Shown: piece after piece, positions 1 through 15,513 of the stretch | How positions within the stretch are numbered: position 1 is the stretch's first letter | Layout of the letters: each line of letters starts with the position of its first letter | DNA from: a virus | Lineage: Duplodnaviria > Heunggongvirae > Uroviricota > Caudoviricetes | Direction: 5' to 3' (one strand) | Virus record (IMG/VR): IMGVR_UViG_2558860161_000009 | Length of the DNA stretch: 16,050 nt | The notes under the pieces: generated by a model | Database searches by the model: none | Seen by the model: only the letters and a program-made list of their open reading frames with translations | What the model was told of the DNA's origin: nothing | Made by a program: the position numbers and the translations under genes

Positions 1-1224
1 ATGGCTGGCACAAACAAACTGAGCGACAAAAAGCTAAAAGCATTGCTGGGTTCTGAGCGTGAAGCGCCGATCATGATTGCCGATGGTGAGGGGCTAAGCG
101 TTAAGGTCTCGAAGCAAGGTAACGTTAGCTGGGTATTTTCATACCGGTTGGGAGGAAGGGGTAGCAAACTCGAACGTTTAACGCTTGGCCGTTACCCTGA
201 TATGCCGCTAAAACTTGCGCGAGAAAAGCGGGAACAGTGTCGCCAGTGGCTGGCTGGTGGGCTTGATCCGAAAACTGAGATTGAGCTGAGCACAGAAGAA
301 ACGCTTAAGCCTGTAACGGTTAAAGACGCCCTGGAATATTGGTTGGTGAATTACGCCAGGAGAAAGCGCAGTGATGAGGCGTTGGTGAGGGCGCAGCTAC
401 GCAAGCATATTTACCCGCGCCTTGGTCGTTATCCGATCACCAGATGTGAAACCCGCCATTGGGTGGCCTGTTTTGACGAAATAAACCAGACTAAACCCAT
501 GACCGCCGGCCGCATGTTCCAGATTTCTAAACAGGCGTTACGTTTCTGCAAGGTTCGCCGTTATGCTGCCAGTGATGCTCTGGCCTTTCTCACCATTCAG
601 GATGTAGGCCAGCCATCTGGTCAACGTGATCGCGTATTGTCAGATAGCGAGCTGGCTGATGTGTGGCGCTGTACAGATAGCGATGATCAGCAGCCGTATT
701 ATTCACGTCTGCTCAAAATGCTGGTGCTTTTTGGTGCGCGAACGATGGAAGTTCGCCTTTCTCGATGGTCAGAGTGGGATTTTACATCGTGGATTTGGAC
801 TGTACCGAAAGAGCATAGCAAAACCAGAGAGAAAATCGTGAGGTCGATACCTGAAGCTATACGCCCGTGGCTGGAAGAGTTAAAGCGCGAGACAGGGAAA
901 ACAGGTTTGTTACTGGGCGAAGATCGTACCCGTCAGGCTGTATCATTGAAAGGGCGCAGGCTTTTTAAAGATTTTCACCATAACGAGCCGTGGACACTTC
1001 ACGATCTGCGTCGGACGTTTTCTACGGGGCTAAACAATATGGGTATAGCACCGCATATAGTCGAGCTGCTGTTGGGCCATGCCTTGCCGGGAGTTATGGC
1101 GATTTATAACCGTAGTCTTTACTTACCGGAGAAGCTGGACGCGCTGAACAAGTGGTATGACCGCTTAGAACTTCTCGCGGGTAATCACTCTAATATCGTT
1201 ATTTTAAAGGCTGGTGAAAAATGA
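1..1224 (+). CDS. int: Tyrosine site-specific recombinase, P4-type satellite integrase
   Basis: 407-aa ORF starting at window position 1. N-terminal arm-binding region (KLSDKKLKAL...WVFSYRLGGRGSKLERLTLGRYP) and C-terminal catalytic region (HDLRRTFSTG...LLGHA...AIYNRS with the presumed catalytic Tyr) are typical of P4-like integrases. Confidence 0.9.
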   Translation: MAGTNKLSDKKLKALLGSEREAPIMIADGEGLSVKVSKQGNVSWVFSYRLGGRGSKLERLTLGRYPDMPLKLAREKREQCRQWLAGGLDPKTEIELSTEETLKPVTVKDALEYWLVNYARRKRSDEALVRAQLRKHIYPRLGRYPITRCETRHWVACFDEINQTKPMTAGRMFQISKQALRFCKVRRYAASDALAFLTIQDVGQPSGQRDRVLSDSELADVWRCTDSDDQQPYYSRLLKMLVLFGARTMEVRLSRWSEWDFTSWIWTVPKEHSKTREKIVRSIPEAIRPWLEELKRETGKTGLLLGEDRTRQAVSLKGRRLFKDFHHNEPWTLHDLRRTFSTGLNNMGIAPHIVELLLGHALPGVMAIYNRSLYLPEKLDALNKWYDRLELLAGNHSNIVILKAGEK

Positions 1225-2024
1225 GAATTAGCCACAAAAAAGATTTGCCAACATGGTTTGATTTAGATAACTACACTCAATTTATTGGCATGTCAGATAA
1301 AGACTTATTTTATCAGTTGGTTGTTAGATATGACATGCTTGAAAACTTCTATCGATATGGCGGGTCTTTTTATAATGAACCTCTTACAAATAACGATGAA
1401 GTAGGAAGGATACTTGGAAATGGCGCGGTCGCTAATGCGATTGATAGAGCTACGTACTTCTATGATGCGTTTAAACTTCCTATTAAAAGAGAAGGTGTTT
1501 TGTCTGGTGGGGTTGCGTTACGACCAATGTCCATTGAAGACTTTATTTATATGAAAGATGCTGTAGATAATTATATGGAAAATAATTTTACGGGAACGGC
1601 TGAAAATTTAGTTTACCATTCATTTACAAGTGTTAGCTCATTTTTGGAACCAAATGACCTTTTTATTAAAGTTGATTTGTCACGCCCGGATGATTTATTG
1701 ATTGATGTGTTTAAAAAAAACCTCAAGAATTGGCGTGAGGAATTAAAAATAAAAGAAAAGGAAAAAACATACCAGTCATGGGAAACAATTAAAAAAAAGG
1801 TATACGATTATTCACTTTTCCCCGTAGTTGATTTGATGATCTGGGCTAAATCTCGCGGGGCATGCGTCACCAATGGCGTGCTTGCTGTGGCTGTGTTTCC
1901 GAACGGAGAGTATGACTCAACGCAGATAGCGCAAACCGTAAAGCCAAATATAGAAAAAATCTTCTCAATTTCTTCTATAGAAAAAATCAGGTCAGAACTT
2001 CAGGATAGAAAAATTCTTCCTTAA
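1221..2024 (+). CDS. Hypothetical 267-aa protein, AT-rich orphan cargo gene; no recognisable domain
   Basis: Long uninterrupted ORF whose ATG overlaps the integrase stop (ATGA at 1221-1224). Markedly lower G+C than flanking genes (a 100-nt sample counted by eye is about one third G+C). I could not match any catalytic or DNA-binding motif. Confidence 0.7.
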   Translation: MRISHKKDLPTWFDLDNYTQFIGMSDKDLFYQLVVRYDMLENFYRYGGSFYNEPLTNNDEVGRILGNGAVANAIDRATYFYDAFKLPIKREGVLSGGVALRPMSIEDFIYMKDAVDNYMENNFTGTAENLVYHSFTSVSSFLEPNDLFIKVDLSRPDDLLIDVFKKNLKNWREELKIKEKEKTYQSWETIKKKVYDYSLFPVVDLMIWAKSRGACVTNGVLAVAVFPNGEYDSTQIAQTVKPNIEKIFSISSIEKIRSELQDRKILP

Positions 2025-2119
2025 TCTTGGTGGTCAAAACAATTTAATTTTCGTCTAGTGTGACATCCAATCACAAGGATAACAATAGCCCCCACAAACT
2101 TAGAAACAGTGGAGGCAAC

Positions 2120-2404
2120 ATGCAAATTATCACCTTTACCCCGCCAAATCCTGAACAACGCCGCACCATTCTGGAGGAGTACGGCTTCAAGTTCGATCGC
2201 CGAATCCGCGAAGATGAATGCAGCGAGATCACCAGTCTTTCTCGTTCGAGCCGCTGGAAGATGGAACAGCAGGGGCGCTTCCCGCCGCGCTGTCACTTTG
2301 GCCGCAACAGCTGTGCCTGGCTTCTTTCGGATGTGCTCTGGTGGGTTCGTAATCCGCCTGCCGTGGAAAACGTCAATAACCCGTACAGCCGCAAATCTGC
2401 TTAA
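2120..2404 (+). CDS. alpA: AlpA-family (phage regulatory, MerR-like HTH) transcriptional regulator
   Basis: Start chosen at the internal ATG 2120 preceded by GGAGG (2111-2115); the ORF track's 2060 start adds an unsupported N-terminal extension. The segment ITSLSRSSRWKMEQQGRFPP...GRNSCAWLLSDVLWWV matches the AlpA pattern (tG.SRST.W...G.FP...lG.r...W...dv..W). Confidence 0.8.
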   Translation: MQIITFTPPNPEQRRTILEEYGFKFDRRIREDECSEITSLSRSSRWKMEQQGRFPPRCHFGRNSCAWLLSDVLWWVRNPPAVENVNNPYSRKSA

Positions 2405-2424
2405 TTAACCACAGGTAATCAGAG

Positions 2425-3108
2425 ATGAAAAATATTAATGCCCTTAACGGGCAGGGATTCGCTCACCCTGTTGCCAGTAAAAGCGATATTAGCGTGCAGC
2501 TTAAACAGCTTCCTGCCGTCGAATTTCACGGGCAACGCGTGGTGACGTTCGCAATGATTGATACCGCGCACCAGCGACCTAAAGACACGGCTAAAAAGAC
2601 TTTTCAGCGTAATCGCACTCGCTTCATTGATGGTGAGGACTTTTTTATTGTCGGCGCGTCAGAGGTCGAATGGGGAGGGGCTGGATATTTAGACAGGGGC
2701 ATTAAACGCCCTGGCAAAAAAATGAACAGTCCGATACGTGGCCGCGTAACACTGATTACGGAATCAGGCTATCTGCTGCTGACCAAACCGTTTAACGATG
2801 ATTTGGCCTGGCAGGTACAGCGCCAGCTCGTGAAAACTTATTTCCGTTGCCCGGAGTTTGTCACTTTCCATCATGTGGATCTGCCGTCGCTCGAAGAACT
2901 GATCGCCATGCCGGTTACTGATGCGCAAAACGCCGTGACTCGTGCGGACAAGCATTCTAAGCAGTTTCATGGCTCACAGGGCAGTAATGGAATGAATCTC
3001 CGCAAGAAGGAACTCAAAGTTCTGCGTCCGGCGGTACGGCTGGTAGATGCGATGGGGCAGATTGATTTCGATAAATATGAGTGGGAGGCGGCACATGATC
3101 GCGCATAA
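2425..3108 (+). CDS. ORF6N-domain protein (phage antirepressor-like family)
   Basis: 227-aa ORF 20 nt downstream of alpA. N-terminal region HGQRVVTF...TFQRNRTRFIDGEDFF...WGGAGYL...LITESGYLLL fits the ORF6N domain pattern as I recall it. Confidence 0.65.
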   Translation: MKNINALNGQGFAHPVASKSDISVQLKQLPAVEFHGQRVVTFAMIDTAHQRPKDTAKKTFQRNRTRFIDGEDFFIVGASEVEWGGAGYLDRGIKRPGKKMNSPIRGRVTLITESGYLLLTKPFNDDLAWQVQRQLVKTYFRCPEFVTFHHVDLPSLEELIAMPVTDAQNAVTRADKHSKQFHGSQGSNGMNLRKKELKVLRPAVRLVDAMGQIDFDKYEWEAAHDRA

Positions 3109-3114
3109 AACAAA

Positions 3115-3134
3115 GGCGACCGGGGGCGGTCGCC
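3115..3134. other. Perfect 8-bp-stem hairpin (GGCGACCG-GGGG-CGGTCGCC) between convergent genes; possible terminator for minus-strand transcripts
   Basis: Inverted repeat read directly from the sequence; on the minus strand it is followed by a T-rich run (reverse complement of CATAAAACAAA). Confidence 0.3.
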
Positions 3135-3435
3135 AATGGGAAAACACTAAACATAAGCCCGAACATCATAGTGATTTGCTGGCTGGTGGGCAATGTGATC
3201 AGTCAGATTTGGTTCGTTCCAAGGTTTGCAACGAGAGCTTTTTCCTGTGCTCTTTAAGGAATTTCTCAAGAGCAAAAGCACATGGCGCGAATCTTTCTGA
3301 TTCATGTTTATGCGCTATATTTTTGCGTCGTCTCTTACGAGTTGGTGATGGTGTTTTGGTTGATTCTGTGTCGCTCATGGTGCTGTCCTGTAAAGCAATG
3401 CGCCGGACTTCTTCAAACTATGCCGCTGATAGTGG

Positions 3436-3615
3436 CTACTCCTGCTCTTTGGCCTTGCGCCGCTGGCGGCGTTTGATCTCACCTTCAAGTGCCGAAACGA
3501 TAAATTGCCCAGTGCTTTCGCCTTCTTCCTTTAAATTTTCTACAGCGTCAGCTATTGCATGGGGTACTCGTGCCTCAAGTTTTTTGGATTTTCCATTAAC
3601 TGCTTTCGTTGCCAT
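3436..3615 (-). CDS. Small (59 aa) putative ribbon-helix-helix-like DNA-binding regulator, divergent from the replication operon
   Basis: Internal ATG at 3615..3613 is preceded on the minus strand by AAGGAAAT; stop TAG at 3438..3436. The product MATKAVNGKSKKLEARVPHAIADAVENLKEEGESTGQFIVSALEGEI... has a beta-strand/helix/helix pattern and a basic tail. Fold assignment is inference; the longer 120-aa version in the ORF track is rejected. Confidence 0.5.
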   Translation of the reverse strand: MATKAVNGKSKKLEARVPHAIADAVENLKEEGESTGQFIVSALEGEIKRRQRRKAKEQE

Positions 3616-3635
3616 ATCTGATTTCCTTGTTATTA

Positions 3636-3720
3636 GGTAGCTGACAGTATACACACAAGAAAATGGAAAAACACTATTGACGTGGCTGACACCTGTCACT
3701 AGTATAGTGGCTGACACCTT
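3636..3720. promoter_or_regulatory. Divergent promoter/operator region: sigma70-like promoter for rightward transcription overlapped by direct repeats of GTGGCTGACACCT
   Basis: TTGACG at 3677-3682, 17-bp spacer, TAGTAT at 3700-3705. Exact 13-mer GTGGCTGACACCT at 3682-3694 and 3707-3719, with a third partial copy (GCTGACA core) at 3640-3646 next to the start of the minus-strand regulator. Confidence 0.45.
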
Positions 3721-3814
3721 TATTGAGGTAATCGATGAAAAGACAAAGCCCGCAGGTGCTACCAACACCAACGGGCTTCTAACCACCAACGATAGCAAGA
3801 TTATCGAGGCAGCT

Positions 3815-4018
3815 ATGAGAAATCATACCATACACCCGCAAGGGCGGGACTCGTACAACCTGAATAAATACATCTGGCGTTTTATCGCCCTGAGCACGGC
3901 ACAACCGCGCGTGATTACCATCGTGGCCACCAGCGAACAGGAAGCACGCCAGCAATCCCCGGCTGGCTGCGTGATGGTATTCGCCGCCCGTATTCGTCAG
4001 GGGGTGTGCCATGCCTGA
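3815..4018 (+). CDS. Hypothetical small protein (67 aa), start uncertain
   Basis: ATG at 3815 preceded by GAGG (3806-3809); its stop overlaps the ATG of the next ORF (ATGCCTGA at 4011-4018), suggesting translational coupling. No recognisable motif. Confidence 0.3.
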   Translation: MRNHTIHPQGRDSYNLNKYIWRFIALSTAQPRVITIVATSEQEARQQSPAGCVMVFAARIRQGVCHA

Positions 4019-4331
4019 CATGACCAATTACCAGTACCTGATTAATCCGCATTTTAACTGTGAGCATGATATTGCTAAAAAGGTTTATTCCGCTGCGGAT
4101 GGGGCTACTGACAATATATCAATGGCTGTTGCGTCAATTGGTAGCCTGATGTGGCATGCGTCAGAAAATGAGGAATATGACGAAAAGGCTATGCGCATTG
4201 ACATGGGTAATATTGGCTTGTTACTGGCAATGCTTGGGCAGTTTGATATTTCGTTACGGTGCACCATTGAAAATGCCACAGATGCATTAAATGCCATAAA
4301 GAAAGCGAATACTGATTCAAATCGGGGATAA
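4011..4331 (+). CDS. Hypothetical protein (106 aa)
   Basis: ORF tightly packed in the same orientation as the flanking genes; no recognisable motif. Confidence 0.5.
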   Translation: MPDMTNYQYLINPHFNCEHDIAKKVYSAADGATDNISMAVASIGSLMWHASENEEYDEKAMRIDMGNIGLLLAMLGQFDISLRCTIENATDALNAIKKANTDSNRG

Positions 4332-4337
4332 ATAATC

Positions 4338-4637
4338 ATGAGAACATATTTATCTGGCTTAACTGCCAGCGGTTATGCACACCCCAAAATTATCCCCGGC
4401 GCTATTTATCTGGATAAGAACGGTAACAGAGTAACGGTAAAAGAACTGATGTTTGACCGTGTTTATTTTATTCGTGATGGCTATTCATTTCATAGTTCGC
4501 TGAACGTGGAGATCTTTATTTGCAGATTCCGGCGGGAAATCCCGCTTTCCAGAAATAACCATGTGTCATGTATGGATGTTGATAAAAAACTACAGGAACT
4601 GAAAAACATGATTGCCGCGTGGAGAGAGCAGAAATGA
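4338..4637 (+). CDS. Hypothetical protein (99 aa)
   Basis: ORF whose stop overlaps the start of the replication gene (ATGA at 4634-4637); no recognisable motif. Confidence 0.5.
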   Translation: MRTYLSGLTASGYAHPKIIPGAIYLDKNGNRVTVKELMFDRVYFIRDGYSFHSSLNVEIFICRFRREIPLSRNNHVSCMDVDKKLQELKNMIAAWREQK

Positions 4638-6757
4638 AAAAAGCGCCAAATTTAAAACACCAGCCGCGTGACAAAATGACGGAAGTCATCATTTTTGCGG
4701 GTAGTAATGCGTGGGCACATGCGAAGCAGTGGCAGGAACAGGACGGGCGACTGGCTGGCGATAACGTGCCTCCTGTCTGGCTTGGAGAGCAACAACTTGC
4801 CGAACTGGACAACCTGCAAATCGTACCGGACGGACGCTATCGCGTGCGTCTCTATCAGGCGGGGTTATTGCGTCCGGGGCTTGTTAATACCATCGGGCAG
4901 AAACTGGCAGCGGCAGGTGTCAGGGATGCTGATTATTACCCTGAAGGAATGCACAGCCAGAAACGGGAGAACTGGCGCGAATATCTGGAACGTGAACGGG
5001 CAGAGCAGGCGGAAAAGAAAAAGGTAGTTGAACTGCCTGTAAAGAAAAAAGAGCCATGCTATCAGGATGATGAATTAAAGCCCCGCGTTGAAAGTCGCGC
5101 CGATGGTGTTTTCTGGGTAACGCCCAAAGTGGATAAGCAGTCAGGTGAAATTATCCGGCCTGAGACGTGGTTATGTTCTCCACTTGAACTACTGGGAACG
5201 GGGGTAATCGGTAAAGAGCATTACCGCGTGATGCGCTGGAAAAAATTCGCAAACCATGAAGTCATAACAATGGCGATCCCGTGTGGTGGCATTGGCGACC
5301 GTGACGGCTGGCGGTTGCTTAAAGATCACGGCCTGAACGTGACAACAAACGGCAAATACAGGGCTATCCTGGCTGACTGGATGCAGTTAAGCGGAAGCCA
5401 TGAGGAATGGCAGCTAAGCACAACAACGGGCTGGCATTTTGGCGCGTACATCATGCCGGATGGTTCAATCATTGGTGATTCAGAAAAACCGATCCTGTTT
5501 ACCGGAAAAAGTGCCGCTGTTAATGGCTATTCGGTTGTGGGTACGGCGGAGGGCTGGCGCGACAGCGTGGCGCGGCTGGCTGGTGGCAATCCGTCCATGA
5601 TGCTGGGTGTTGCCACGTCACTGGCAGCACCTTTGATTGGCCTTGTTGGTGCTGACGGCTTCGGGGTACATCTTTTCGAACAGTCATCGGCAGGGAAAAC
5701 CACCACGCAGAACATCGCTTCAAGTTTATGGGGGGAGCCGGACGCGCAACGGCTGACCTGGTACGGAACGGCGTTAGGTATCGCCAACGAGGCCGAAGCA
5801 CACAACGACGGGCTGTTACCCCTGGATGAAATAGGCCAGGCCGGAAACGCGCGGGAAGTGTCCACGTCAGCCTATACGCTGTTTAACGGTTCGGGGAAAT
5901 TACAGGGGGCGAAGGACGGCGGCAACAGGGAGATCAAACACTGGCGCACGGTGGCAATCAGCACCGGAGAAATGGATGTTGAGACATTCCTCAAAAGTGA
6001 GGGGGTAAAAGTCAAAGCAGGCCAGCTTGTCCGTCTGCTTAACGTACCGATGGAGAAAGCCACGCAATTTCACGAATACAGCACCGGAAAGGCGCACGCA
6101 GACGCGTTAAAGGATGCCTGGACTGCAAATCACGGGGCGGCGGGTCGTGAGTGGGTTAAATGGCTGGCAGACCACCAGCAGGAGGCAAAGGACACGGTAA
6201 GGGAATGCCGCGAACGGTGGCACAACCTGATACCGGAGAGCTACGGCGAGCAGGTCCACCGCGTGGGGGAGCGTTTCGCCATACTGGAGGCCGCACTAGT
6301 GCTTTCCGGTCATATTACTGGCTGGGATGTTCAGGCGTGCCGTGATGCCATTCAGCATAACTTTAATGCCTGGGTGAAGGAGTTCGGCACGGGTAACAGG
6401 GAATTTAAACAGATGGTTGAACAGGCTGAGGCGTTTTTGTCGTCGTTCGGGTTCAGTCGATACCTTCCTTACCCAAACAGTGATGAGCGTGATTTACCAA
6501 TTAAAGATCTTGCCGGATACAGAAAGGGGAGTATCAGAAATGAAGATGATGAGTTCCGCTTTTACACGTTTCCTCATGTGTTTGAGGGTGAGATAGCACA
6601 GGGATTTAATCCGTCTCACTTTGCCCGCGCGTTGAGTGCTGCCGGAATGCTGGAAGCGGGTAACGATCGCCGTTACAAGAAAAAGGCGCTCGGCAAAATT
6701 GGGGGGAAGCAGCATGTTTTTTACGTGCTGATGTTCCAGCCTGAAGCAGAAGATTAA
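4634..6757 (+). CDS. Satellite replication protein, primase/helicase-like (DUF927-type P-loop NTPase)
   Basis: About 707 aa from the ATG at 4634, which is preceded by GGAGAG and overlaps the upstream stop. Walker-A-like SSAGKTT encoded near 5683-5703; large size and position immediately upstream of an iteron cluster. Family assignment from memory of P4 alpha / PICI Pri-Rep-like proteins. Confidence 0.75.
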   Translation: MKKAPNLKHQPRDKMTEVIIFAGSNAWAHAKQWQEQDGRLAGDNVPPVWLGEQQLAELDNLQIVPDGRYRVRLYQAGLLRPGLVNTIGQKLAAAGVRDADYYPEGMHSQKRENWREYLERERAEQAEKKKVVELPVKKKEPCYQDDELKPRVESRADGVFWVTPKVDKQSGEIIRPETWLCSPLELLGTGVIGKEHYRVMRWKKFANHEVITMAIPCGGIGDRDGWRLLKDHGLNVTTNGKYRAILADWMQLSGSHEEWQLSTTTGWHFGAYIMPDGSIIGDSEKPILFTGKSAAVNGYSVVGTAEGWRDSVARLAGGNPSMMLGVATSLAAPLIGLVGADGFGVHLFEQSSAGKTTTQNIASSLWGEPDAQRLTWYGTALGIANEAEAHNDGLLPLDEIGQAGNAREVSTSAYTLFNGSGKLQGAKDGGNREIKHWRTVAISTGEMDVETFLKSEGVKVKAGQLVRLLNVPMEKATQFHEYSTGKAHADALKDAWTANHGAAGREWVKWLADHQQEAKDTVRECRERWHNLIPESYGEQVHRVGERFAILEAALVLSGHITGWDVQACRDAIQHNFNAWVKEFGTGNREFKQMVEQAEAFLSSFGFSRYLPYPNSDERDLPIKDLAGYRKGSIRNEDDEFRFYTFPHVFEGEIAQGFNPSHFARALSAAGMLEAGNDRRYKKKALGKIGGKQHVFYVLMFQPEAED

Positions 6758-6779
6758 CTCCCCTGTGTGAGGTGAAAAG

Positions 6780-6905
6780 TTGCGGGTTATGCGGGTTATC
6801 CTGTGTGTAAGTGCATTAACTGTATGAATAAAAAGGAAATCAATAACCCGCACGTAACCCGCAAAACGGCAGTTATAACCCGCAAAAGTGCGATTATAAC
6901 CCGCA
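6780..6905. repeat. Iteron cluster, probable replication origin: 2 tandem GCGGGTTAT copies followed by 4 inverted (A/G)TAACCCGC copies
   Basis: Forward copies at 6782-6790 and 6791-6799; inverted copies at 6843-6851, 6854-6862, 6875-6883 and 6897-6905 (spacing 11, 21, 22 bp); AT-rich segment 6810-6842 in between; directly downstream of the replication gene. Confidence 0.6.
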
Positions 6906-6968
6906 GAATTTCACCGTAAGGGTGTAAACAAGCGTAACTATCAACGTTAAAACCGGAGAACAGACAGC

Positions 6969-7394
6969 ATGACAGCACAGATAGCTGCTTACGGGCGGTT
7001 GGTGGCTGACCCGCAGTTAAAGACCACCAGCAAAGGGACACAAATGGCGATGGCGAGTATGGCGATTCCTCTTCCGTGCAGCCAGGCAGATGACGGAACA
7101 GCGACGATGTGGTTATCAATTCTGGCGTTTGGCAGACAGGCCGATGCACTGGCAAAACACCACAAAGGCGAGCTGGTGAGCGTGGCGGGTAACATGCAGG
7201 TAAGCCAGTGGACAGGCCAGAACGGGGAAACGCGGCAGGGCTGGCAGGTTATCGCAGACAGCGTAATCAGTGCGCGAACGGCGCGACCTGGTGGCAAAAA
7301 AGGCCAGCAGGGGCAGGCCACTGACGCACTGAACAGGGCAAAACAACAGACAGGCCAGCACGATGACCCGTACGGGGATGAAATACCGTTTTAG
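6969..7394 (+). CDS. ssb: Single-stranded DNA-binding protein (SSB-like)
   Basis: 141-aa product with an OB-fold-like N-terminal part, a Gly/Gln-rich linker (PGGKKGQQGQ) and an acidic C-terminal tail ending DDPYGDEIPF, resembling the SSB C-terminal D-I-P-F tip. Confidence 0.7.
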   Translation: MTAQIAAYGRLVADPQLKTTSKGTQMAMASMAIPLPCSQADDGTATMWLSILAFGRQADALAKHHKGELVSVAGNMQVSQWTGQNGETRQGWQVIADSVISARTARPGGKKGQQGQATDALNRAKQQTGQHDDPYGDEIPF

Positions 7395-7412
7395 CGATAA
7401 CAGGGGGGATAC

Positions 7413-7661
7413 ATGCCAGTGACATTTGAAGAAGTCCAGCAACATAAAAAGTTTCATGGTTTTGATGATCTGGAAACCACGACAGCAAAAAAATATCGCC
7501 GTCTGCTTTCTTCCGATGCGTTGTTTTTTGTAGATCATCATGATTTTCTGCGTAGCTCACTGACAGGGGAAATTTTCGCAACCAACCGTGAGCAGGTGGA
7601 AGCGATGATCGAATATCTGTGGAAAATAAGACGCAGAATGCGGGATTCCATGAAACAGTAA
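7413..7661 (+). CDS. Hypothetical protein (82 aa)
   Basis: ORF 19 nt after ssb, followed by an intrinsic terminator; no recognisable motif. Confidence 0.5.
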   Translation: MPVTFEEVQQHKKFHGFDDLETTTAKKYRRLLSSDALFFVDHHDFLRSSLTGEIFATNREQVEAMIEYLWKIRRRMRDSMKQ

Positions 7662-7670
7662 AGCGATAAA

Positions 7671-7697
7671 GGCCCGGATTTTTCCGGGTTTTCTTTT
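7671..7697 (+). terminator. Rho-independent terminator ending the replication module
   Basis: Stem CCCGGA (7673-7678), loop TTTT, stem TCCGGG (7683-7688), then T-tract TTTTCTTTT (7689-7697). Confidence 0.55.
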
Positions 7698-7934
7698 CAG
7701 GTTTTGTAAATTATTTGTTCGTGGTTGTTTCTGGCTGTTCAGTGATTCTGGCTGATATTTACATACTGATTTTTATGTATATGTTGGCGTGTGGCACTCA
7801 GACGTGAGCCGCCACAATGCCGCCTGACCCCCTGCGCGATGCCGGGTTGATCTGCGAGATGCCGAGAGTGTCGGGCGGCGCTCCCTCCGTGTTGGTTTCA
7901 CGTCCTGAATCTTAACCAATACGAGAAAACCTTC

Positions 7935-9080
7935 ATGAAGAAATTAATCGAACTCCGCCAGCAAAAAACCGCCCTGAAAAACCAGATGCGATCCCTGCTG
8001 GAAAAAGCCGACAGTGAAAACCGCAGCCTGAACGATGACGAGGGCAAACAGTTTGATGAACTGCGTGCAAAAGCCGATTCCCTCGACACAGAAATTTCCC
8101 GTCTTGAAGCTGTTGCGGATGAAGAACGTAACCAGCCTGGTGTTTCCGTCGAAGAGAAAATCACCAAAGATGAACTGCGCTCTTACATTCTGACCGGGGA
8201 AACCCGCAACCTGTCCGGCAGTGTCCCGGCTGATGGTGGCTATACCGTTATTCCCGAGCTGAATAAAGAGATTATGCGCCAGCTTGCCGATGAATCGGTG
8301 ATGCGCAAAATCTGTACCGTTAAAACCATTCACAGCAATGAATTTAAGCAACTGGTTTCCGCTGGTGGCGCGGTGGTTGAGCATGGCGAGGAAGGTGCGG
8401 CACGTAACCAGACGGCAACGCCGAAACTGAACGAAGTCAGCATCCGCCTGTATCCGATCTACGCTTACCCGAAAACCACTCAGGAAATTATCGATTTTTC
8501 CGAAGTCGATATTATGAGCTGGTTATCTTCTGAAATTGGCGACACTTTCGTTGATACCGAAGAAACGGATCTGGTTTCCGGTGACGGCGAGAAAAAAGCT
8601 AAAGGTTTCCTGGCGTTCCCGCGCACTGCGGATAACGACAAAACCCGTCCTTTCGGTACGCTCCAGACGAAAAAAGTTACTGGCAGTCTCAGCGCCGACA
8701 TGCTGATTGACCTGAAATTTACGCTGCGCAATAAGTACCGCAAAAAAGCTGTATGGGTGATGAACTCAAATACAGCCGCCTCCGCACAAAAACTGAAAAA
8801 TGCCACTGGTGATTACATCTGGCGCGATCGTTTACAGGCTGGTGATCCTGATTCTCTGCTGGGGCTTCCGGTTGAATATCTGGAATTTATGCCGGACGGT
8901 GTGATTGCAGTAGGTGACTTTAAGCGCGGTTATTTCATCGTTGACCATGAAACCGGTACGCGTACCCGTCCGGACTTCAGCGAACCCGGATTCATTAACA
9001 TCTATACCCAGAAATATCTGGGCGGTGGTGTGGTGGATTCGAACGCCATCAAGATTCTGGAAATTCAGGCTGGTGAGTAA
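7935..9080 (+). CDS. Major capsid protein, HK97 family, with N-terminal coiled-coil scaffold-like domain
   Basis: 381-aa product: charged coiled-coil-like N-terminus, then a region (GGYTVIPELNKEIMRQLADESVMRKICTVKT...) matching the HK97-type capsid pattern as I recall it. Confidence 0.8.
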   Translation: MKKLIELRQQKTALKNQMRSLLEKADSENRSLNDDEGKQFDELRAKADSLDTEISRLEAVADEERNQPGVSVEEKITKDELRSYILTGETRNLSGSVPADGGYTVIPELNKEIMRQLADESVMRKICTVKTIHSNEFKQLVSAGGAVVEHGEEGAARNQTATPKLNEVSIRLYPIYAYPKTTQEIIDFSEVDIMSWLSSEIGDTFVDTEETDLVSGDGEKKAKGFLAFPRTADNDKTRPFGTLQTKKVTGSLSADMLIDLKFTLRNKYRKKAVWVMNSNTAASAQKLKNATGDYIWRDRLQAGDPDSLLGLPVEYLEFMPDGVIAVGDFKRGYFIVDHETGTRTRPDFSEPGFINIYTQKYLGGGVVDSNAIKILEIQAGE

Positions 9081-9087
9081 TGAGCAA

Positions 9088-9109
9088 GGAGGCTTCGGCC
9101 TCCTTTTTT
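9088..9109 (+). terminator. Rho-independent terminator/attenuator immediately after the capsid gene
   Basis: Stem GGAGGC (9088-9093), loop TTCG, stem GCCTCC (9098-9103), then TTTTTT (9104-9109). Confidence 0.6.
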
Positions 9110-9128
9110 AGCTTCAGGGGATACACCG

Positions 9129-9689
9129 ATGAAAAACACCGATTTTGAAATCCGCACATCTGAACTGACCGCCAGCAATAAAAAGCTGGTGGGGTATGCC
9201 GTTCGCTGGAACAGCCTTTCAGAAATTATCTGGGACGAATTCCGCGAACAGTTCACGCCGGGGGCTTTTGCTGACTATCTGGCGGCGGGTAATGATGTGC
9301 GCTGCCTGTATGAGCATGACTATACCCAACTGCTGGGGCGCACCAAATCCGGCACTCTGGTACTGACTGAGGATAACACCGGGTTACGTTTTGAACTGAC
9401 ACCGCCGGATACCCAGCTTGGAAAAGATGTGCTTACGCTGGTGGAGCGTGGCGACATTACAGGAATGAGCTTTGGTTTTCGCGCATTATGCGAGGAGTGG
9501 AGTATCGCGCAAAAACCGTATTTGCGTACCGTAACCGCCGCTGAACTCCGTGAAATCACAATAACGTCGATGCCTGCTTATCCAGAATCTGGCGTGGAGA
9601 TTGCCCACCGTTCGTTGTTTGCACAGCACCCTGAATTATGCCCGACAGGAAATAATCGTCATCGCTGGTCTGAGCTGGCGGGGTTGTGA
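9129..9689 (+). CDS. Prohead (head maturation) protease, HK97 family
   Basis: 186-aa product with GYAVRWNS...FTPGAFADYL...LYEHD...LGRT...GLRFEL...GDITGMSFGF, characteristic of HK97-type prohead proteases; sits between capsid and portal genes. Confidence 0.8.
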   Translation: MKNTDFEIRTSELTASNKKLVGYAVRWNSLSEIIWDEFREQFTPGAFADYLAAGNDVRCLYEHDYTQLLGRTKSGTLVLTEDNTGLRFELTPPDTQLGKDVLTLVERGDITGMSFGFRALCEEWSIAQKPYLRTVTAAELREITITSMPAYPESGVEIAHRSLFAQHPELCPTGNNRHRWSELAGL

Positions 9690-9690
9690 T

Positions 9691-10905
9691 ATGTGGTGGC
9701 CTTTTAGTCGTAAAAAAAGCGAGCAGCGTAACCTGTCCATTGATGATTTTCTGGCGCTGTCCGGCGTACCGAATACCGGATCCGGAGAATATGTTTCTGC
9801 CGGGACGGCTGAATCATTGCCTGCAGTGATGAACGCGGTTTCTGTCATCGCTGAGGCGGTGGCCACGATGCCGTGTTATCTGTATCTGGTACGTAATGAC
9901 AAGGGCAGGGAGGCGCGGGAATGGCTGGACAGTCACCCGGTAGATATTCTGCTGAATGAGCAGCCTAATTCGTGCCAGACACCTTACCAGTTTAAACGCA
10001 CAATGATGCGTCACTGCCTGCTGAACGGTAACGCCTATGCGGTTATTGAGTGGGGGCAAGACGGGCAGCCAAAATCACTTCATCCTTATGCGCCGGGGTG
10101 TGTTGTACCGGAACGCACAGGCGCACACAAATACCGCTATACCATCACCGAACCCTATACAGGAACGGTGCGCACGTATTTACAGGAAGAAGTTCTGCAT
10201 CTCCGCTATGCCTCGGATGATGGCTTTCTGGGGCGTTCCCCTGTCACGATTTGCCGTGAGGCGCTTGGGCTTGGCCTTGCTCAACAGCGCCACGGAGCCA
10301 GCATTATGAAAGATGGCATGATGGCGGCAGGGATTATCACGTCAGGCGAATGGCTGGACGGCGTGAAAGGTAAACAGGCATTAGATGCTCTGGAACGCTA
10401 CAAGGGGGCGAAAAATGCCGGAAAAACGCCAATCCTTGAAGGGGGCATGGATTACAAGCAACTGGGAATGAGTAACCAGGATGCGGAATGGCTGGCCTCC
10501 CGTCGCTTCTCCATTGAAGACATCGCCCGCATGTTCAACGTATCGCCTATTTTTCTGCAGGAATACAGCAACAGCACCTACAGCAATTTCAGCGAGGCAA
10601 GCCGCGCGTTTCTGACCATGACAATGCGCCCATGGCTGGCGAACTTCGAACAGCAAATCAAGGCCGCTTTGCTGGTGGCTTCTCCCGTACCTGGTACCCG
10701 TTATCTGGTTGAGTTTGATTCAGCCGATTTATTACGCGCCACACCCACCGAACGTTATGCCACGTATGAGAAAGGGATTAAGAACGGGATCATGAATCCG
10801 AACGAAGCCCGTGAGCGTGAGGGTATGCCGCCGCGTGAAGGTGGTGATGAGTTCAGCCAGGCATGGAAACAGACTGTGGAAATTAAAGGGAGAAAAGATG
10901 AGTGA
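9691..10905 (+). CDS. Portal protein, HK97 family
   Basis: Start taken at ATG 9691 (MWWPFSRKK...), 1 nt after the protease stop; the ORF track's 9601 start would overlap the protease gene. Size (404 aa) and position fit a portal. Confidence 0.75.
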   Translation: MWWPFSRKKSEQRNLSIDDFLALSGVPNTGSGEYVSAGTAESLPAVMNAVSVIAEAVATMPCYLYLVRNDKGREAREWLDSHPVDILLNEQPNSCQTPYQFKRTMMRHCLLNGNAYAVIEWGQDGQPKSLHPYAPGCVVPERTGAHKYRYTITEPYTGTVRTYLQEEVLHLRYASDDGFLGRSPVTICREALGLGLAQQRHGASIMKDGMMAAGIITSGEWLDGVKGKQALDALERYKGAKNAGKTPILEGGMDYKQLGMSNQDAEWLASRRFSIEDIARMFNVSPIFLQEYSNSTYSNFSEASRAFLTMTMRPWLANFEQQIKAALLVASPVPGTRYLVEFDSADLLRATPTERYATYEKGIKNGIMNPNEAREREGMPPREGGDEFSQAWKQTVEIKGRKDE

Positions 10906-11200
10906 AGCCAGAATTACACCTGATGAAGTCAGGGCACATCTTCGACTTGATGATGATTTATCCGGTGAAGGCGAACTTCTGAAAATGTATACCGATGCGG
11001 CGCTGGAAGCCTGCCAGAAGCATATCGGGAAACGTTTTGAAGACGGGCTGGAATTTACCCCGGCAATGCGTGTTGGTTGCCTGATGTACATCGCTTTCCT
11101 GTACGAGAACCGGGAAGCGGTTTCACCAGTGGAGCACTCGGAACTGCCTATGGCTATTTCTGCGCTCTGGTCAGTTTATCGTGACGTAGGGGTGTACTGA
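10898..11200 (+). CDS. Head-tail connector (gp6-like DNA-packaging/adaptor) protein
   Basis: Start at ATG 10898 preceded by AAGGGAG and overlapping the portal stop. N-terminus ITPDEVRAHLRLDDDLSGEGELLKMYTDAALEACQKHIG matches the typical connector N-terminal motif. Confidence 0.7.
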   Translation: MSEARITPDEVRAHLRLDDDLSGEGELLKMYTDAALEACQKHIGKRFEDGLEFTPAMRVGCLMYIAFLYENREAVSPVEHSELPMAISALWSVYRDVGVY

Positions 11201-11640
11201 TGCCGTGGCAACCATTAAGGCGATGCACTGAGCCTGGCTGTAATAAGCGCGTGAAGTCCGGCAAGTGTGAAGAGCACAGGCGGGCTGCATGGCGTGCAGA
11301 GGATGCCAGACGGGGACACCGCCGCGCGCGCGGGTATTCCCGACAGTGGGACAAATACCGCGCCCTGTACCTGAGCAAAAACCCGTTATGCGTGCGTTGT
11401 CTGGCTAAGGGGATTTATACGCCAGCTCTTGTGGTGGATCACATCATTCCCATCAATGGCGGCGGTGATGTTCTCTTCTGGCCTGAGTGGAATCACCAGG
11501 CATTGTGCCAGACGTGCCACAACCGTAAGACGACACGGGAAGATCCAGCCACGAAAGCAAACCGTAAAGCGGGCATGTATCGCGAGCAGGAAGAACGGGC
11601 GGCACACCGTAACGACTGGATGTATGGCGATGATGACTGA
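11200..11640 (+). CDS. HNH endonuclease (packaging-associated)
   Basis: Cys-rich zinc-finger-like segments (CTEPGC...CEEH and C..C...CQTCHNRKT) and HNH-like core DHIIPINGGGD...WNHQALC. Start overlaps the connector stop (TGATG). Confidence 0.85.
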   Translation: MPWQPLRRCTEPGCNKRVKSGKCEEHRRAAWRAEDARRGHRRARGYSRQWDKYRALYLSKNPLCVRCLAKGIYTPALVVDHIIPINGGGDVLFWPEWNHQALCQTCHNRKTTREDPATKANRKAGMYREQEERAAHRNDWMYGDDD

Positions 11641-11817
11641 ACAGGAGCAAACCAGGCTGATACGTGGACTGATAAGGCAGCGTGACACATGGAAGACACA
11701 GGAGACAGAGCACAAAGCCAACAGGACAGGGCGCACAAAACGCACCACAGCGAAGCGATTAACCGACCGTGACCGCGAGGTCATGGAATGTTTTCGCAAT
11801 CGCTGGTGAGGCCGTCA

Positions 11818-11877
11818 GAGGGGGTGGGGGTGGTTTTCAGGACGAAACCGTCCCTGCCGGACACCGACCGCCCCCTC
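11818..11877. other. Candidate cos (packaging) site: G-rich nested inverted repeats between the HNH and terS genes
   Basis: GAGGGGG (11818-11824) pairs with CCCCCTC (11871-11877); inner GGTTT (11832-11836) pairs with AAACC (11845-11849); lies in the 288-bp gap directly upstream of terS. Confidence 0.35.
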
Positions 11878-11928
11878 AAATTTTTGTGCACGGTAATTTT
11901 TTTGAAAATAATTGGGCGAAAAAAGAAC

Positions 11929-12285
11929 ATGGCAAGACCACCAAAAGCCCCCGCTTACCTGGATGAAATCGCGGTCAGGCAGTGGAAGGAAAAATCGCGC
12001 CAGCTTTCCGGGCGGGAAGACCTTACCCCCGCCGACTGGAGCAATCTGGAACTGTATTGTGTTAACTACTCCATATACCGCAAAGCCGTCGAAGACCTTG
12101 CGACGCGCGGGTTCAGCATTGTTAACAGTCAGGGCAGCGAGAGCAGAAACCCCGCACTGAGCGCAAAGGCTGACGCAGAAAGAATAATGATCAAAATGGC
12201 TTCTTTGCTGGGTTTTGACCCGGTAAGCCGTCGCAGAAATCCACCGGAAACAGAGGAAGAGGACGAACTTGACCGCCTGGCATGA
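11929..12285 (+). CDS. terS: Terminase small subunit (P27-family-like)
   Basis: Start at ATG 11929 (MARPPKAP...); the ORF track's 11788 start would run through the putative cos region. Internal ELYCVNYSIYRKA and C-terminal LGFDPVSRRR segments resemble P27-type TerS. Confidence 0.7.
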   Translation: MARPPKAPAYLDEIAVRQWKEKSRQLSGREDLTPADWSNLELYCVNYSIYRKAVEDLATRGFSIVNSQGSESRNPALSAKADAERIMIKMASLLGFDPVSRRRNPPETEEEDELDRLA

Positions 12286-13930
12286 GTACGCAGAAGGCGT
12301 AAAAAACGGCAAAATTACGGCCTGTAAACGACTGAAACAGGCCGTTAAACGGTATTTTTCTGACCTTGAAAACTCCCTTTACACGTTCGATCCGGAGGTC
12401 GTGGAGCGGTTTATTGCCTTTTCCCGGGTGTGTCCGCACGTAAAAGGCGCAATGCGCGGTAGTCCCATTGAACTGGAGCCGTGGCAGCAGTTCGCCTTTG
12501 CCTGCATCCTGGGCTTTAAGGTTAAGGCCACCGGACGGCGCAAATACACCAGCGCATTCATTGAAGTACCGCGAAAAAATGCCAAATCCACGGTCGCCGC
12601 TATCCTGGCTAACTGGTTTCTGGTTATGGAAAACGGGCAGCAGGATATTTACACCGCCGCCGTGAGTCGTGATCAGGCGCGGATCGTGTTTGATGATGCG
12701 CGTCAGATGTGCCTTTTATCCCGACCGTTACGAAAGCGGGTAAATATTCAGGCGCACAAGGTGATACACCCGAAAACCAACAGCCTGTTAAAGCCACTGG
12801 CAGCAAAAGCGGCAACCATTGAGGGGACAAACCCGAGTCTTGCCATTGTGGATGAATATCACCTGCACCCAGACAACGGGGTTTATTCCGCACTTGAGCT
12901 GGGGATGGGGGCGCGTCCGGAGGGGCTGTTATTTGCCATCACCACATCGGGGAGCAACGTTGTTTCAGCCTGTAAACAACACTATGACTATTGCTGTCAG
13001 ATACTGGATGGTGAAGAGATGAACGAATCCATGTTCGTTCTGATTTACGAGCTGGATGATGAAAGCGAGGTTGACGATCCGGCGATGTGGATAAAGGCGA
13101 ATCCAAATATCGATGTTTCCGTCGATCGTGAAAAACTGGCCTCAACCATCCAGAAAGCGCGGGGTATTCCGTCGCAGTGGGTGGAAATGCTCACCAAGCG
13201 ATTCAATATCTGGTGTCAGGGGGCTACGCCGTGGATGGGTAACGGTGCATGGGCGGAGTGCGCCGGAACGTTCGCGGAGGCGGATTTATACGGGCAGGAG
13301 TGCTACGCGGGGCTGGACTTATCATCAACCAGCGATATTTCCAGCGTGTGCTATGCCTTTCCGGTCGGTAAAAAGATTATGCTGGTTTCCCGTCACTATC
13401 TGCCGGAATTTCAGCTACAGAACCCCGCCAATAAAAACCGCGCCATCTATCGCCAGTGGGTAAAGGCGGGCTGGATACGCACAACACCGGGTGACTGCAT
13501 TGATTATGACCGTATCCGTGATGACATCATGGCGGATGCAGAGAATTTCAATATCAGGCTGGTGGGCTTCGATACATGGAACGCCACGCACCTGAGGACG
13601 CAGCTACAGGGGGCAGGATTTGAGGTGGAGCCGTTCCCGCAAACATACCTTCGTTTCAGTCCGGCGGCGAAATCGTTCGAAGTTTTTGTTAACCGGAAGG
13701 TGATTGTGCATCGTGGTGATCCGGTGCTGGCCTGGTCAATGAGTAATGTTGTGATGCAGAGTGACGCGAACGCCAATATCAAGCCGAACAAGAAAAAATC
13801 ATCCAACAAGATAGACCCGAGCGTTGCGGCGCTGATGGCGTTTGGCACATTCCAGGCAGAGCATGAGGAATTTGCATTTGATATGAGCGACAGCCACAAA
13901 GAGCGACTTGCGGCGTTTGATGGGGTATGA
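12269..13930 (+). CDS. terL: Terminase large subunit
   Basis: 553-aa product with ATPase-like N-terminal part (VPRKNAKST resembles a Walker A region) and nuclease-like C-terminal part. Start as given in the ORF track is a TTG overlapping the terS 3' end; the exact start is uncertain. Confidence 0.85.
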   Translation: MTAWHEYAEGVKNGKITACKRLKQAVKRYFSDLENSLYTFDPEVVERFIAFSRVCPHVKGAMRGSPIELEPWQQFAFACILGFKVKATGRRKYTSAFIEVPRKNAKSTVAAILANWFLVMENGQQDIYTAAVSRDQARIVFDDARQMCLLSRPLRKRVNIQAHKVIHPKTNSLLKPLAAKAATIEGTNPSLAIVDEYHLHPDNGVYSALELGMGARPEGLLFAITTSGSNVVSACKQHYDYCCQILDGEEMNESMFVLIYELDDESEVDDPAMWIKANPNIDVSVDREKLASTIQKARGIPSQWVEMLTKRFNIWCQGATPWMGNGAWAECAGTFAEADLYGQECYAGLDLSSTSDISSVCYAFPVGKKIMLVSRHYLPEFQLQNPANKNRAIYRQWVKAGWIRTTPGDCIDYDRIRDDIMADAENFNIRLVGFDTWNATHLRTQLQGAGFEVEPFPQTYLRFSPAAKSFEVFVNRKVIVHRGDPVLAWSMSNVVMQSDANANIKPNKKKSSNKIDPSVAALMAFGTFQAEHEEFAFDMSDSHKERLAAFDGV

Positions 13931-14217
13931 CGAGAATGACTGAAACTGATCTACTAAAAATAATTCGCCGCATTACCGGAATCAGTCAGCAGCCTGACGA
14001 ACAGGCTACACAGCCGGACAGCGTGATAGCCGAAAATTACGCGCGTGTGGTGGCTGAGGTAATGCGCCGTGACGGTATTGAGCTTAACGGCGTGGATATG
14101 CGCAACATACGAACCAGAGTTCTTGAGTTGCTGGCATACCGTCGCCGTTCTCAACAACGGAGGGAGAGCGCGAAAAATACTTACCAGTGGAAGAAGCCGG
14201 AACGGTTGCGGCGGTAG
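13927..14217 (+). CDS. Hypothetical protein (96 aa) downstream of terL
   Basis: ATG overlaps the terL stop (ATGA); basic C-terminus; no recognisable motif. Confidence 0.5.
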   Translation: MTRMTETDLLKIIRRITGISQQPDEQATQPDSVIAENYARVVAEVMRRDGIELNGVDMRNIRTRVLELLAYRRRSQQRRESAKNTYQWKKPERLRR

Positions 14218-14544
14218 ATTCCTGATATTCAGTAAAACCACGAATCTGTGGTGTTTACTGGCGCGGTTACGGCGGTGACACGCACCGAGGCAGAACAATT
14301 ACCGTAGGTTAAAGCGACAGTATTCACACCAAAGGCAGAAATTAGCGGTTAACGTAACTGACTGATATTTTCAGGAACAGCCAACGGCTGAGGCCGGAGC
14401 TATAAGAATAGCTTTGGGTACAGTCCTCAGTTTTGAGGGATGTTAACCAACTGAATAATAAGCAAACCTCAAAATTGAGTTTTGTATCTGCCTGAGTTAT
14501 TTCTGTGCTAACTTGTTGATATTCCCGACGGCCCAAAAATGGGT

Positions 14545-14674
14545 TGGCTGGTGGGTGAGTTGCAGATTTGCAACTCGACCATGAAACTACGGAAACTACC
14601 CGTAGTTTGGGTAGTAAGAGCAACACCCAGATTTTGGGGCTTACTCGCGATCCCCAAATAAAGGGGATCGGTGG
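14545..14674. repeat. Copy 1 of a ~130-bp hairpin-rich direct repeat
   Basis: Nearly identical by eye to 14982-15108. Contains hairpins GAGTTGCA-GATT-TGCAACTC, AACTACGG-AAACTAC-CCGTAGTT and GATCCCC-AAATAAA-GGGGATC. Confidence 0.7.
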
Positions 14675-14702
14675 CATCACTGGCCCCACTTTCCTGATGT
14701 GT

Positions 14703-14857
14703 TTGCGGGTTATTTGGGAGAGGTTGCGGGTTATTTTGAATGACTTGCGGGTTACGATTTGGCTAACATTTGAACATGTCATTTTTCAACGCATTGATAT
14801 TAAATAATAAAAAATACTTAGCACGCGAAGATAACCCGCTAACCCGCATAACCCGCA
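14703..14857. repeat. Second iteron cluster of the same family as 6780-6905 (ori-like)
   Basis: TTGCGGGTTA(T/C) at 14703-14713, 14724-14734 and 14745-14755 (exactly 21 bp apart); AT-rich spacer 14756-14830; inverted (T)AACCCGC at 14833-14839, 14841-14847 and 14851-14857; then TATATATATA. Confidence 0.6.
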
Positions 14858-14981
14858 CTGTTTTGTATATATATACGAAAAATTGCATTCAGGAGGGGTA
14901 GCAAAATCCCTACCGTCTCTTATCTCTTGGAGTGCCCGCCTCTTCGAATTTTAACCCCCGTGAAATTACAAAATTTCCCTG

Positions 14982-15108
14982 ACTGATGGCGAGTTGCAGA
15001 TCTGCAACTCGACTATGAAACTACGGAAACTACCCGTAGTTTGGGTAGTAAGAGTAACACCCAGATTTTGGGGCTTACTTGCGATACCCAAATACAGGGG
15101 ATCGGTGG
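14982..15108. repeat. Copy 2 of the ~130-bp hairpin-rich direct repeat
   Basis: Aligned by eye to copy 1 with a handful of substitutions (for example GATTTG to GATCTG, AGCAAC to AGTAAC, TCGCGATCC to TTGCGATAC). Confidence 0.7.
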
Positions 15109-15513
15109 AAGAAATATCGTTTCTCATATGTGAGTACCGAGGGCGGAATTCCGCCTTCGGTTACTTATTGTGCTCATGCACAGGGAGGGGCGGGTCAAAT
15201 CTCTGTACCCTGACGTCTTCCGGACTGCCCGCTCCATCGATTTTTTATACCCGCGAAAAATGCTTCACGCTGGTGGGCATGATGCGTGGGGATGCTGATA
15301 ATGGGTTATTGTGGGATAGATGTCTCATACAATAAGAGATTCATAATTTGCTTTTTAATACTGTTATACTCGCCGCCTTTCTACCGTGCTCATGCTTTCG
15401 CATATTTTCGGCTTTGTGCAATAATCCGTATATCACTCGGTGTATCACTTTTAGCTAAAATGCATGGCGTGTTTGTTAATTTAACTGATTAAAATCAGTG
15501 GGATATAAAGTTT

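Follow-up and report, generated by a model that had tools for sequence, protein, structure and literature searches.

What kind of element occupies the hpt locus in the 16,050-nucleotide stretch of DNA recorded in IMG/VR as virus IMGVR_UViG_2558860161_000009, and is it equipped to spread? The whole of this stretch is referred to here as the window. It is Escherichia coli DNA, with 99.4% identity to strain B1172 across its full length; the two are only one base apart over positions 1-11924, and ~85 differences, i.e., nearly all of the remaining ones, lie at 11925-14500. The element is very probably an intact capsid-forming phage-inducible chromosomal island (cf-PICI) of ~15.7 kb, which belongs to the clade of EcCIEDL933 and is integrated in the 5' end of hpt. 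EcCIEDL933 of E. coli O157:H7 is the prototype of the cf-PICIs, and its capsid structure is available as PDB 9GYI (Alqurainy et al., bioRxiv 10.1101/2022.09.08.507074). The element in the window is largely ordinary: its family was described in 2022-23 and its insertion site was catalogued in 2023, and only a missing head-closure gene and a split origin go beyond the published prototypes. Among 5426 complete E. coli genomes, the set to which genome counts refer here unless stated otherwise, only two contain this exact island at a coverage of at least 80%. A homologue of its capsid gene is present in 531 genomes, and 28 have a left junction of this type at hpt.

The gene content corresponds to that of a head-only satellite, as had been proposed in a preliminary description of the window. 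The ~20 credible genes, as recognized with Pfam, PHROG and NCBIfam, are all intact, and neither pseudogenes nor gene fragments were found. Thus, int, alpA, the primase gene with an iteron origin and the genes from capsid to large terminase (TerL) are present, and capsid and terminase genes, the decay of which had been considered, are unimpaired. No tail or lysis families were found among these genes with Pfam and PHROG. Nor do such genes lie upstream of position 1, since gcd starts 397 bp upstream of int in B1172, which leaves no room for them on the left. With the exception of a YlcI/YnfO-family gene at 3436-3615 on the minus strand, the genes form a near-continuous run on the plus strand, and at eight junctions they overlap by 1-17 nt, in agreement with the tight operon noticed before. 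The cf-PICI model of SatelliteFinder comprises 11 core components, and elements with 10 of them are still accepted as "Type B" (PMC10085698). The island has an integrase, AlpA, a primase-replicase, capsid, protease, portal, a gp6-like connector, HNH, the small terminase (TerS) and TerL, and contains no tail or holin genes between the flanking gcd and hpt genes; the second head-tail protein of the model (Hc1, PF05521; called "head-tail adaptor" in PMC10085698) was not found. Thus, the full head set proposed earlier stands for capsid, protease, portal, connector, HNH, TerS and TerL, but the prototype has two head-tail genes, of which the island contains just one.

The gene-by-gene synteny with EcCIEDL933 bears out the assignment to the cf-PICIs. 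From int through the small gene after the TerL gene, every gene apart from the three extra ones named below has a syntenic counterpart in the prototype, with protein identities ranging from 31 to 93%. The identity is 93% for TerL, 89% for TerS and the primase, 84% for HNH, 81% for the portal, 77% for a 61-aa protein, 75-76% for the capsid, 75% for a 96-aa protein, 68% for SSB, 61% for the protease, 56% for the adaptor, 50% for an Icd-like protein and 47% for Int and AlpA. The HK97-fold major capsid protein (381 aa, 7935-9080; PF05065, E 1e-60) matched the 9GYI chain to the same degree (E 5e-187), and residues D257, K290, D295, E319 and R345, mutation of which reduced or abolished transfer in published work on EcCIEDL933, are all conserved. 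EcCIEDL933 was also located in O157:H7 strain FRIK804, where its capsid is identical to the 9GYI chain in all five fragments compared (381 residues). Like the island in the window, EcCIEDL933 is ~15.5 kb long, lacks tail and lysis genes and contains the same iteron sequence. Moreover, the excised size of 15,706 bp, as determined in B1172, fits the 15.4-15.5 kb genome that is packaged in the T=4 heads of EcCIEDL933. The two elements have different integrases and differ in attachment (att) site, which is hpt in the window but lies between roxA and phoQ in FRIK804. In addition, the window island has three genes that EcCIEDL933 lacks, encoding a DUF6387 protein, an ORF6N protein and the divergently transcribed YlcI/YnfO protein, and its AlpA has a longer N-terminus.

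The preliminary description had considered the block an insertion relative to the gcd-hpt region of K-12. Indeed, gcd and hpt are adjacent in a K-12 derivative, with a spacer of 205 bp, and alignment of this empty site to both junctions also defined the att core. This core, TATGAAACATA[C/T]TGTAGAAG, is 20 bp long and consists of the hpt start codon plus six codons. At the left junction, the K-12 sequence continues through TATGAAACATACTGTAGAAG (attB), and it restarts at TATGAAACATATTGTAGAAG at the right junction; the junctions of the hpt island in strain D8 conform to this pattern. The left att repeat was found upstream of position 1, where it had been expected: in related genomes, the core begins 192 bp before that position. 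The attR core TATGAAACATATTGTAGAAG, placed at 15513-15532 by comparison with attL and the empty site of K-12, is identical to the published att of hpt PICIs. The boundaries given earlier require two corrections. The insertion is not directly upstream of hpt, as the core lies inside the 5' end of the gene, and position 15108 is merely the end of an internal 121-bp repeat, ~425 bp short of the true right end at attR. Since position 12 of the core is C on the left, as in K-12, and T on the right, strand exchange most likely took place in the TGTAGAAG part. The circular junction of the excised island is predicted to read ...ATATAAAGTT-TATGAAACATATTGTAGAAG-CAAAAAACTTCG....

The hpt gene (15514-16050, plus strand, 178 aa) is intact, because the island carries a replacement for its start; the sole change relative to K-12 Hpt is T4I, which stems from the island-derived part of the core. 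All of the region upstream of hpt is replaced by island DNA, with a terminator-like hairpin at 15136-15161 and a site resembling a promoter at 15397-15425. The native promoter region of hpt now points at a stub of 14 codons followed by int, and it may drive the expression of the latter. A survey with TIGER, published in 2023, reported 49 PICIs in hpt (PMC10111431). According to the searched text of that survey, these are E. coli islands of 15-16 kb with attL and attR sequences identical to those of the island discussed here, including the C/T difference at core position 12, and they are catalogued as regular PICIs and not called capsid-forming. Both features used there to recognize hpt PICIs, i.e., the identity block TATGAAACATA at the start of hpt and the restoration of hpt by the island, were found in the window.

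The segment between the repeats and the core, at 15286-15512, appears as an att arm that is specific for the integrase, as it is common to the hpt island of D8 and not to an island at cspD/clpS. It contains a doubled motif, GTATATCACTcgGTGTATCACT, at 15428-15449, which is also found in the left arm (B1172, L001 7957-7978); counted from the core centre, the two occurrences lie at distances of 84 bp (upstream) and 149 bp (downstream). In the part of the survey that was searched, the motif tgTGTATTGCa is described to occur twice, 81 bp upstream and 132 bp downstream, in helper-embedded PICIs, and such doubled arm motifs are stated there to be confined to these PICIs (PMC10111431). The period of 12 bp is the same in both motifs and the spacing is similar. 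The GTATATCACTcgGTGTATCACT repeats are probably integrase arm sites.

Several points weigh against the interpretation of the element as an intact cf-PICI. The attL site lies outside the window and is known from related genomes, and the site at which the DNA is presumably cut for packaging, cos, was assigned by its position only. Induction, the formation of small capsids and tail dependence are extrapolated from EcCIEDL933. Finally, Hc1 is missing.

In EcCIEDL933, the interval between the portal and HNH genes contains a gene for the 112-aa head-closure protein Hc1 (PF05521, PHROG 25) and one for the 98-aa gp6-like adaptor Ad1 (PF05135, PHROG 40). In the window, the gene for the gp6-like Ad1 (100 aa, 10898-11200; PF05135; PHROG 40 Ad1, E 2e-28), the "connector" mentioned above, is the sole head-tail gene, and the position that Hc1 has in the prototype, between portal and Ad1, is empty. 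The nucleotide alignment with EcCIEDL933 breaks exactly at the portal end. No match for Hc1 was obtained in the window with tblastn, and a profile built from 62 homologues detected nothing below E = 10 among all six-frame open reading frames (ORFs) of the window, with a positive control scoring 1.7e-40. This profile search rules out that Hc1 is hidden elsewhere or in another frame. The closest phage relatives of Ad1, in SfI, SfII and phiP27, were considered as a clue to the identity of the helper and are uninformative, with only 34-40% identity.

The short form of the head-tail region is widespread. A contiguous portal-Ad1-HNH junction with at least 90% identity is present in 143 E. coli genomes. 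Matches to the region were obtained in ~390 others, and those among them that were listed have the longer form with Hc1. The same packaging module is joined to integrases for hpt, cspD/clpS and fis and to three different replication modules, as in the islands of strains D8, 2824 and HZ13, which argues for ongoing mobility. When one genome per species was considered, ~10 of ~70 loci had the short form, and these were found in Leclercia, Pantoea, Erwinia, Yersinia, Xenorhabdus, Gilliamella and Symbiopectobacterium. In the latter genus, the Hc1 gene is relocated to a position after HNH (L062 11942-12373, L063 8164-8595); hence, this gene can be relocated and not only lost. Short and long forms are intermingled in rough neighbour-joining trees, which suggests that Hc1 has repeatedly been lost or gained.

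Perhaps, the element derives from a cf-PICI and no longer spreads by itself, since heads without Hc1 would lose the packaged DNA and offer no docking site for tails. Besides the failure of both searches to find Hc1, published work on EcCIEDL933 is in line with this idea: mutations in nearly every gene of the packaging module abolished transfer, with the hypothetical gene 1792 as the exception, and in the complementation of an adaptor-plus-connector double mutant both genes were used together. In the islands examined in published work on cf-PICIs, compatibility with tails was further shown to depend on both head-tail proteins. However, all other genes of the island are intact, the Hc1-less junction has been kept in the 143 E. 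coli genomes, the Hc1-less module occupies at least three att sites and is combined there with different integrases and replication modules, and the form recurs, scattered across the trees, in the genera from Leclercia to Gilliamella listed above. A defect in transfer fits poorly with these observations, because a defunct element would cease to spread and recombine, and we consider it unlikely. The best inference is that, for cf-PICIs without Hc1, the helper provides this protein together with the tail.

That the island is not a satellite at all but a decayed HK97-like prophage, from which the tail and lysis genes were deleted, is extremely improbable: although its genes for capsid, protease, portal, HNH and terminases derive from phages and the capsid also matches those of gene-transfer agents (E 1e-47), the match to the published definition of cf-PICIs serves to exclude such an origin, precise att boundaries enclose just 15.7 kb, the left half is the PICI-type int-alpA-primase module common to classical PICIs, the same compact layout is found in ~530 E. 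coli genomes and in many genera, the nearest true phages among the matches listed are at most 37% identical, and the island is free of pseudogenes and gene fragments.

The relation to phages is nevertheless evident in the head genes. HK97 shares with the island an HK97-fold capsid, a prohead protease, a gp6-like adaptor and HNH-assisted cos packaging with the HNH gene beside terS. In contrast, HK97, as a complete phage, has a T=7 head and genes for its own head-closure protein, tail and lysis, which the island lacks. The limit of 37% for true phages applies to both TerL and capsid and was obtained in a phage collection, among the matches listed, which did not include HK97. Two satellite-sized records, vB_KppS-Ant (16.5 kb) and Pasteurella Pmp8 (15.3 kb), are close in both proteins; for Pmp7 (10.7 kb), this holds for TerL. 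The capsid also matched a 3.8-kb fragment from Salmonella, and both proteins had a match in one Klebsiella phage record of 106.5 kb. The record LR881103 ("Escherichia phage vB_KppS-Ant", 16,548 bp), the one whose annotation was inspected, has genes for an integrase, a primase and terminases as well as a head module, and it shows no convincing tail module; the annotation "tape measure" of a gene after that of TerL looks doubtful. The Pasteurella records OR544138 and OR544139 are satellite-sized and close in TerL. These three records, although deposited as phages, look like cf-PICI genomes.

The second unusual feature concerns replication. The DUF927 primase-helicase (707 aa, 4634-6757; PF06048, E 3e-47; PHROG 1139 DNA primase, E 3e-180) is, judged from its sequence, the replication initiator of the island. 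Directly after its gene, an iteron cluster, ori-A (6781-6905), contains TAACCCGCA twice inverted and then four times as direct repeats, the starts of which are spaced 11, 21 and 21 bp. A second cluster, ori-B (14704-14857), lies 7.8 kb away at the right end and consists of three copies of TTGCGGGTTA with a spacing of 21 bp and three inverted ones, separated by an AT-rich stretch. All 11 exact copies of TAACCCGCA in the window lie within these two clusters, and 17 sites with at most one mismatch were observed, whereas 3.9 are expected by chance. In EcCIEDL933, both clusters are contiguous directly after the primase gene (L003 10060-10390), whereas they are split in the window, and ori-B is homologous to the rep-proximal second half of the origin of EcCIEDL933.

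In the window, ori-B is located between two 121-bp direct repeats (14554-14674 and 14988-15108), which are 94% identical. This combination of a split origin and a double repeat was found in only 15 genomes. The island of strain 2824 has the DUF927 primase, both repeats and cluster B, and that of D8 has a different primase, one copy of the 121-bp element and no cluster B. The element itself is present in 988 genomes, usually as a single copy, and is predicted to fold very strongly (-56 kcal/mol, z = -5.9); it matched no Rfam family at E values up to 1. In L006, the single-copy case that was inspected, a classical PICI has the element at its right end, where it follows a small hypothetical gene without a name; this gene corresponds in size and position to that for the 96-aa protein, and the order is the same as in the window. 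The possibility that the element represents the cos site of classical PICIs or lambda was rejected, as the lambda-type cosN GGGCGGCGACCT scored no better than chance.

The satellite P4 likewise combines an integrase with a regulator of the AlpA type and an iteron-binding primase-helicase, and it requires two iteron regions, ori and crr, that lie apart from each other. Its crr consists of 120-bp direct repeats, and P4 is not known to encode a capsid, portal or terminase. The split-origin layout of the window island recalls the ori and crr of P4; however, the iterons lie between the 121-bp repeats and not within them. Classical PICIs of Gram-negative bacteria, of the EcCICFT073 type, have in common with the window island the left half, i.e., int-alpA-icd-DUF4222-primase-SSB, and the arrangement at the right end. 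Unlike the window island, they lack genes for portal, protease, TerL and HNH and rely on a lambda-like cos and the terminase of the helper; no match to the lambda-like cosN above chance was found in the window. It is conceivable, though tentative, that Hc1-less cf-PICIs are recurrent, further-reduced satellites, which borrow Hc1 as well as the tail from the helper, and also that their primase-helicase needs two separated iteron sites, as P4 does with ori and crr.

A life cycle can be outlined from experiments on EcCIEDL933, with only the integration in hpt shown here. A helper phage would turn on alpA, after which Int would excise the island as a circle of ~15.7 kb. The DUF927 primase-helicase and SSB would replicate it from the TAACCCGCA iterons. 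The capsid protein, the protease and the portal would build small T=4 heads, and TerS, TerL and HNH would cut cos between HNH and terS, so that one island genome would end up in each head. Ad1 would then finish the portal vertex, and tails made by the helper would finally attach.

The capsid gene is followed by those for the prohead serine protease of the S78 type (9129-9689; PF04586, E 7e-46) and the portal (404 aa, 9691-10905; PF04860, E 6e-93). Downstream of the adaptor gene are those for HNH (11200-11640; PF01844; PHROG 144) and the conserved 61-aa protein (11624-11809; PHROG 3173). Next, the region at 11810-11928, which aligns with EcCIEDL933 and contains an inverted repeat, GAGGGGGTGG (N40) CCGCCCCCTC, with G-rich and C-rich arms, is the probable cos site, placed here because it is flanked by HNH and terS. 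The ends of LR881103, which is virion-derived, were also considered for locating cos and are ambiguous, as this sequence has ~70 bp fewer than the window and may be opened arbitrarily. TerS (118 aa, 11929-12285) and TerL (553 aa, 12269-13930) have PF05119, PF03354 and PF20441 among their Pfam matches, and the subsequent conserved 96-aa protein (13927-14217; PHROG 1561) has a basic C-terminus. The module appears mosaic: the capsid allele groups with those of EcCIEDL933 and Citrobacter, and portal and TerL group with several other hpt islands. The capsid DNA is ~70% identical to that of several of these islands (L004 and L005 were compared).

At the left end, int (1-1224) encodes a tyrosine integrase of 407 aa with an arm-binding N-terminal domain (PF13356, PF00589, PF22022), which is annotated in B1172. 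The gene for the DUF6387 protein (267 aa, 1221-2024; PF19924, E 2e-29) overlaps the int stop codon by 4 nt and is located in a stretch of 36-41% GC. The same pair is found in the fis-integrated island of HZ13 (L089 1734-2576), which suggests that it is a unit tied to this integrase clade and not random cargo. No defence family was recognized by PADLOC in the DUF6387 protein, the ORF6N protein or the other proteins of unknown function; a match to BrxA (E 0.0096, 13.8 bits) was dismissed as noise.

The AlpA-family regulator (94 aa, 2120-2404; PF05930, E 5.3e-10) scored 39.5 bits against a cut-off of 21. A variable slot 3' of alpA is occupied by the gene for an anti-repressor-like protein of 227 aa with an ORF6N domain (2425-3108; PF10543; PHROG 4608 anti-repressor, E 4e-34). 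The YlcI/YnfO-family protein (59 aa; NCBIfam NF041551, E 4e-17) is annotated in B1172, D8, 2824 and HZ13, and its gene is divergent from the replication and packaging genes. The divergent intergenic region contains direct repeats at 3637-3719, i.e., three copies of GTGGCTGACA and two of a 23-nt unit 25 nt apart, which by their position are a candidate operator or promoter. By eye, the YlcI/YnfO protein is ribbon-helix-helix-like, and it could form a repressor-operator pair with the GTGGCTGACA repeats. A frame at 3047-3640 (197 codons) shows 60% identity over 108 residues to a 247-aa "hypothetical protein" encoded downstream of alpA in EcCIEDL933. This frame has a non-coding-looking composition and overlaps the minus-strand YlcI/YnfO gene; the annotation in EcCIEDL933 may be spurious, or the region may be a recombination scar.

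The rightward gene block begins with the gene for the Icd-like protein (67 aa, 3815-4018; NCBIfam NF033153, E 1e-19), followed by those for a hypothetical protein of 106 aa (4011-4331; PHROG 15327) and a DUF4222 protein (4338-4637; PF13973), which precede the primase gene. Beyond ori-A are the genes for SSB (6969-7394; PF00436) and a conserved 82-aa protein (7413-7661; PHROG 1957), both with orthologues in EcCIEDL933. No membrane-spanning segments were predicted in the credible small proteins of the window. The ORFs at 14342-14782 on the minus strand, 14994-15335 and 3047-3640 were rejected as genes, as they have no family matches and a junk-like composition and are unannotated in relatives. 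A tRNA scan of the window found no tRNA, which argues against a tRNA-targeting island, and the sole Rfam match in the window (E up to 1) was a chance one of 31 nt at 9079-9109, with 21 bits against a gathering score of 382.

The value of this island lies in its being a well-delimited example of its family, with corrected ends, an att core, candidate integrase arm sites and an origin; in kind, it adds little. For the host, its insertion has swapped the promoter region of a purine-salvage gene, and hpt expression could change in strains that carry it. The lack of Hc1 may have wider implications. Stable, DNA-filled, tail-less capsids are thought to enable the transfer of cf-PICIs between species. 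If the borrowing of Hc1 from the helper is true, islands without Hc1 would be unable to make such capsids. As 143 of the 5426 genomes contain it, this sub-type is common, and a supply of Hc1 by the helper would refine the notion that tails are all these satellites take.

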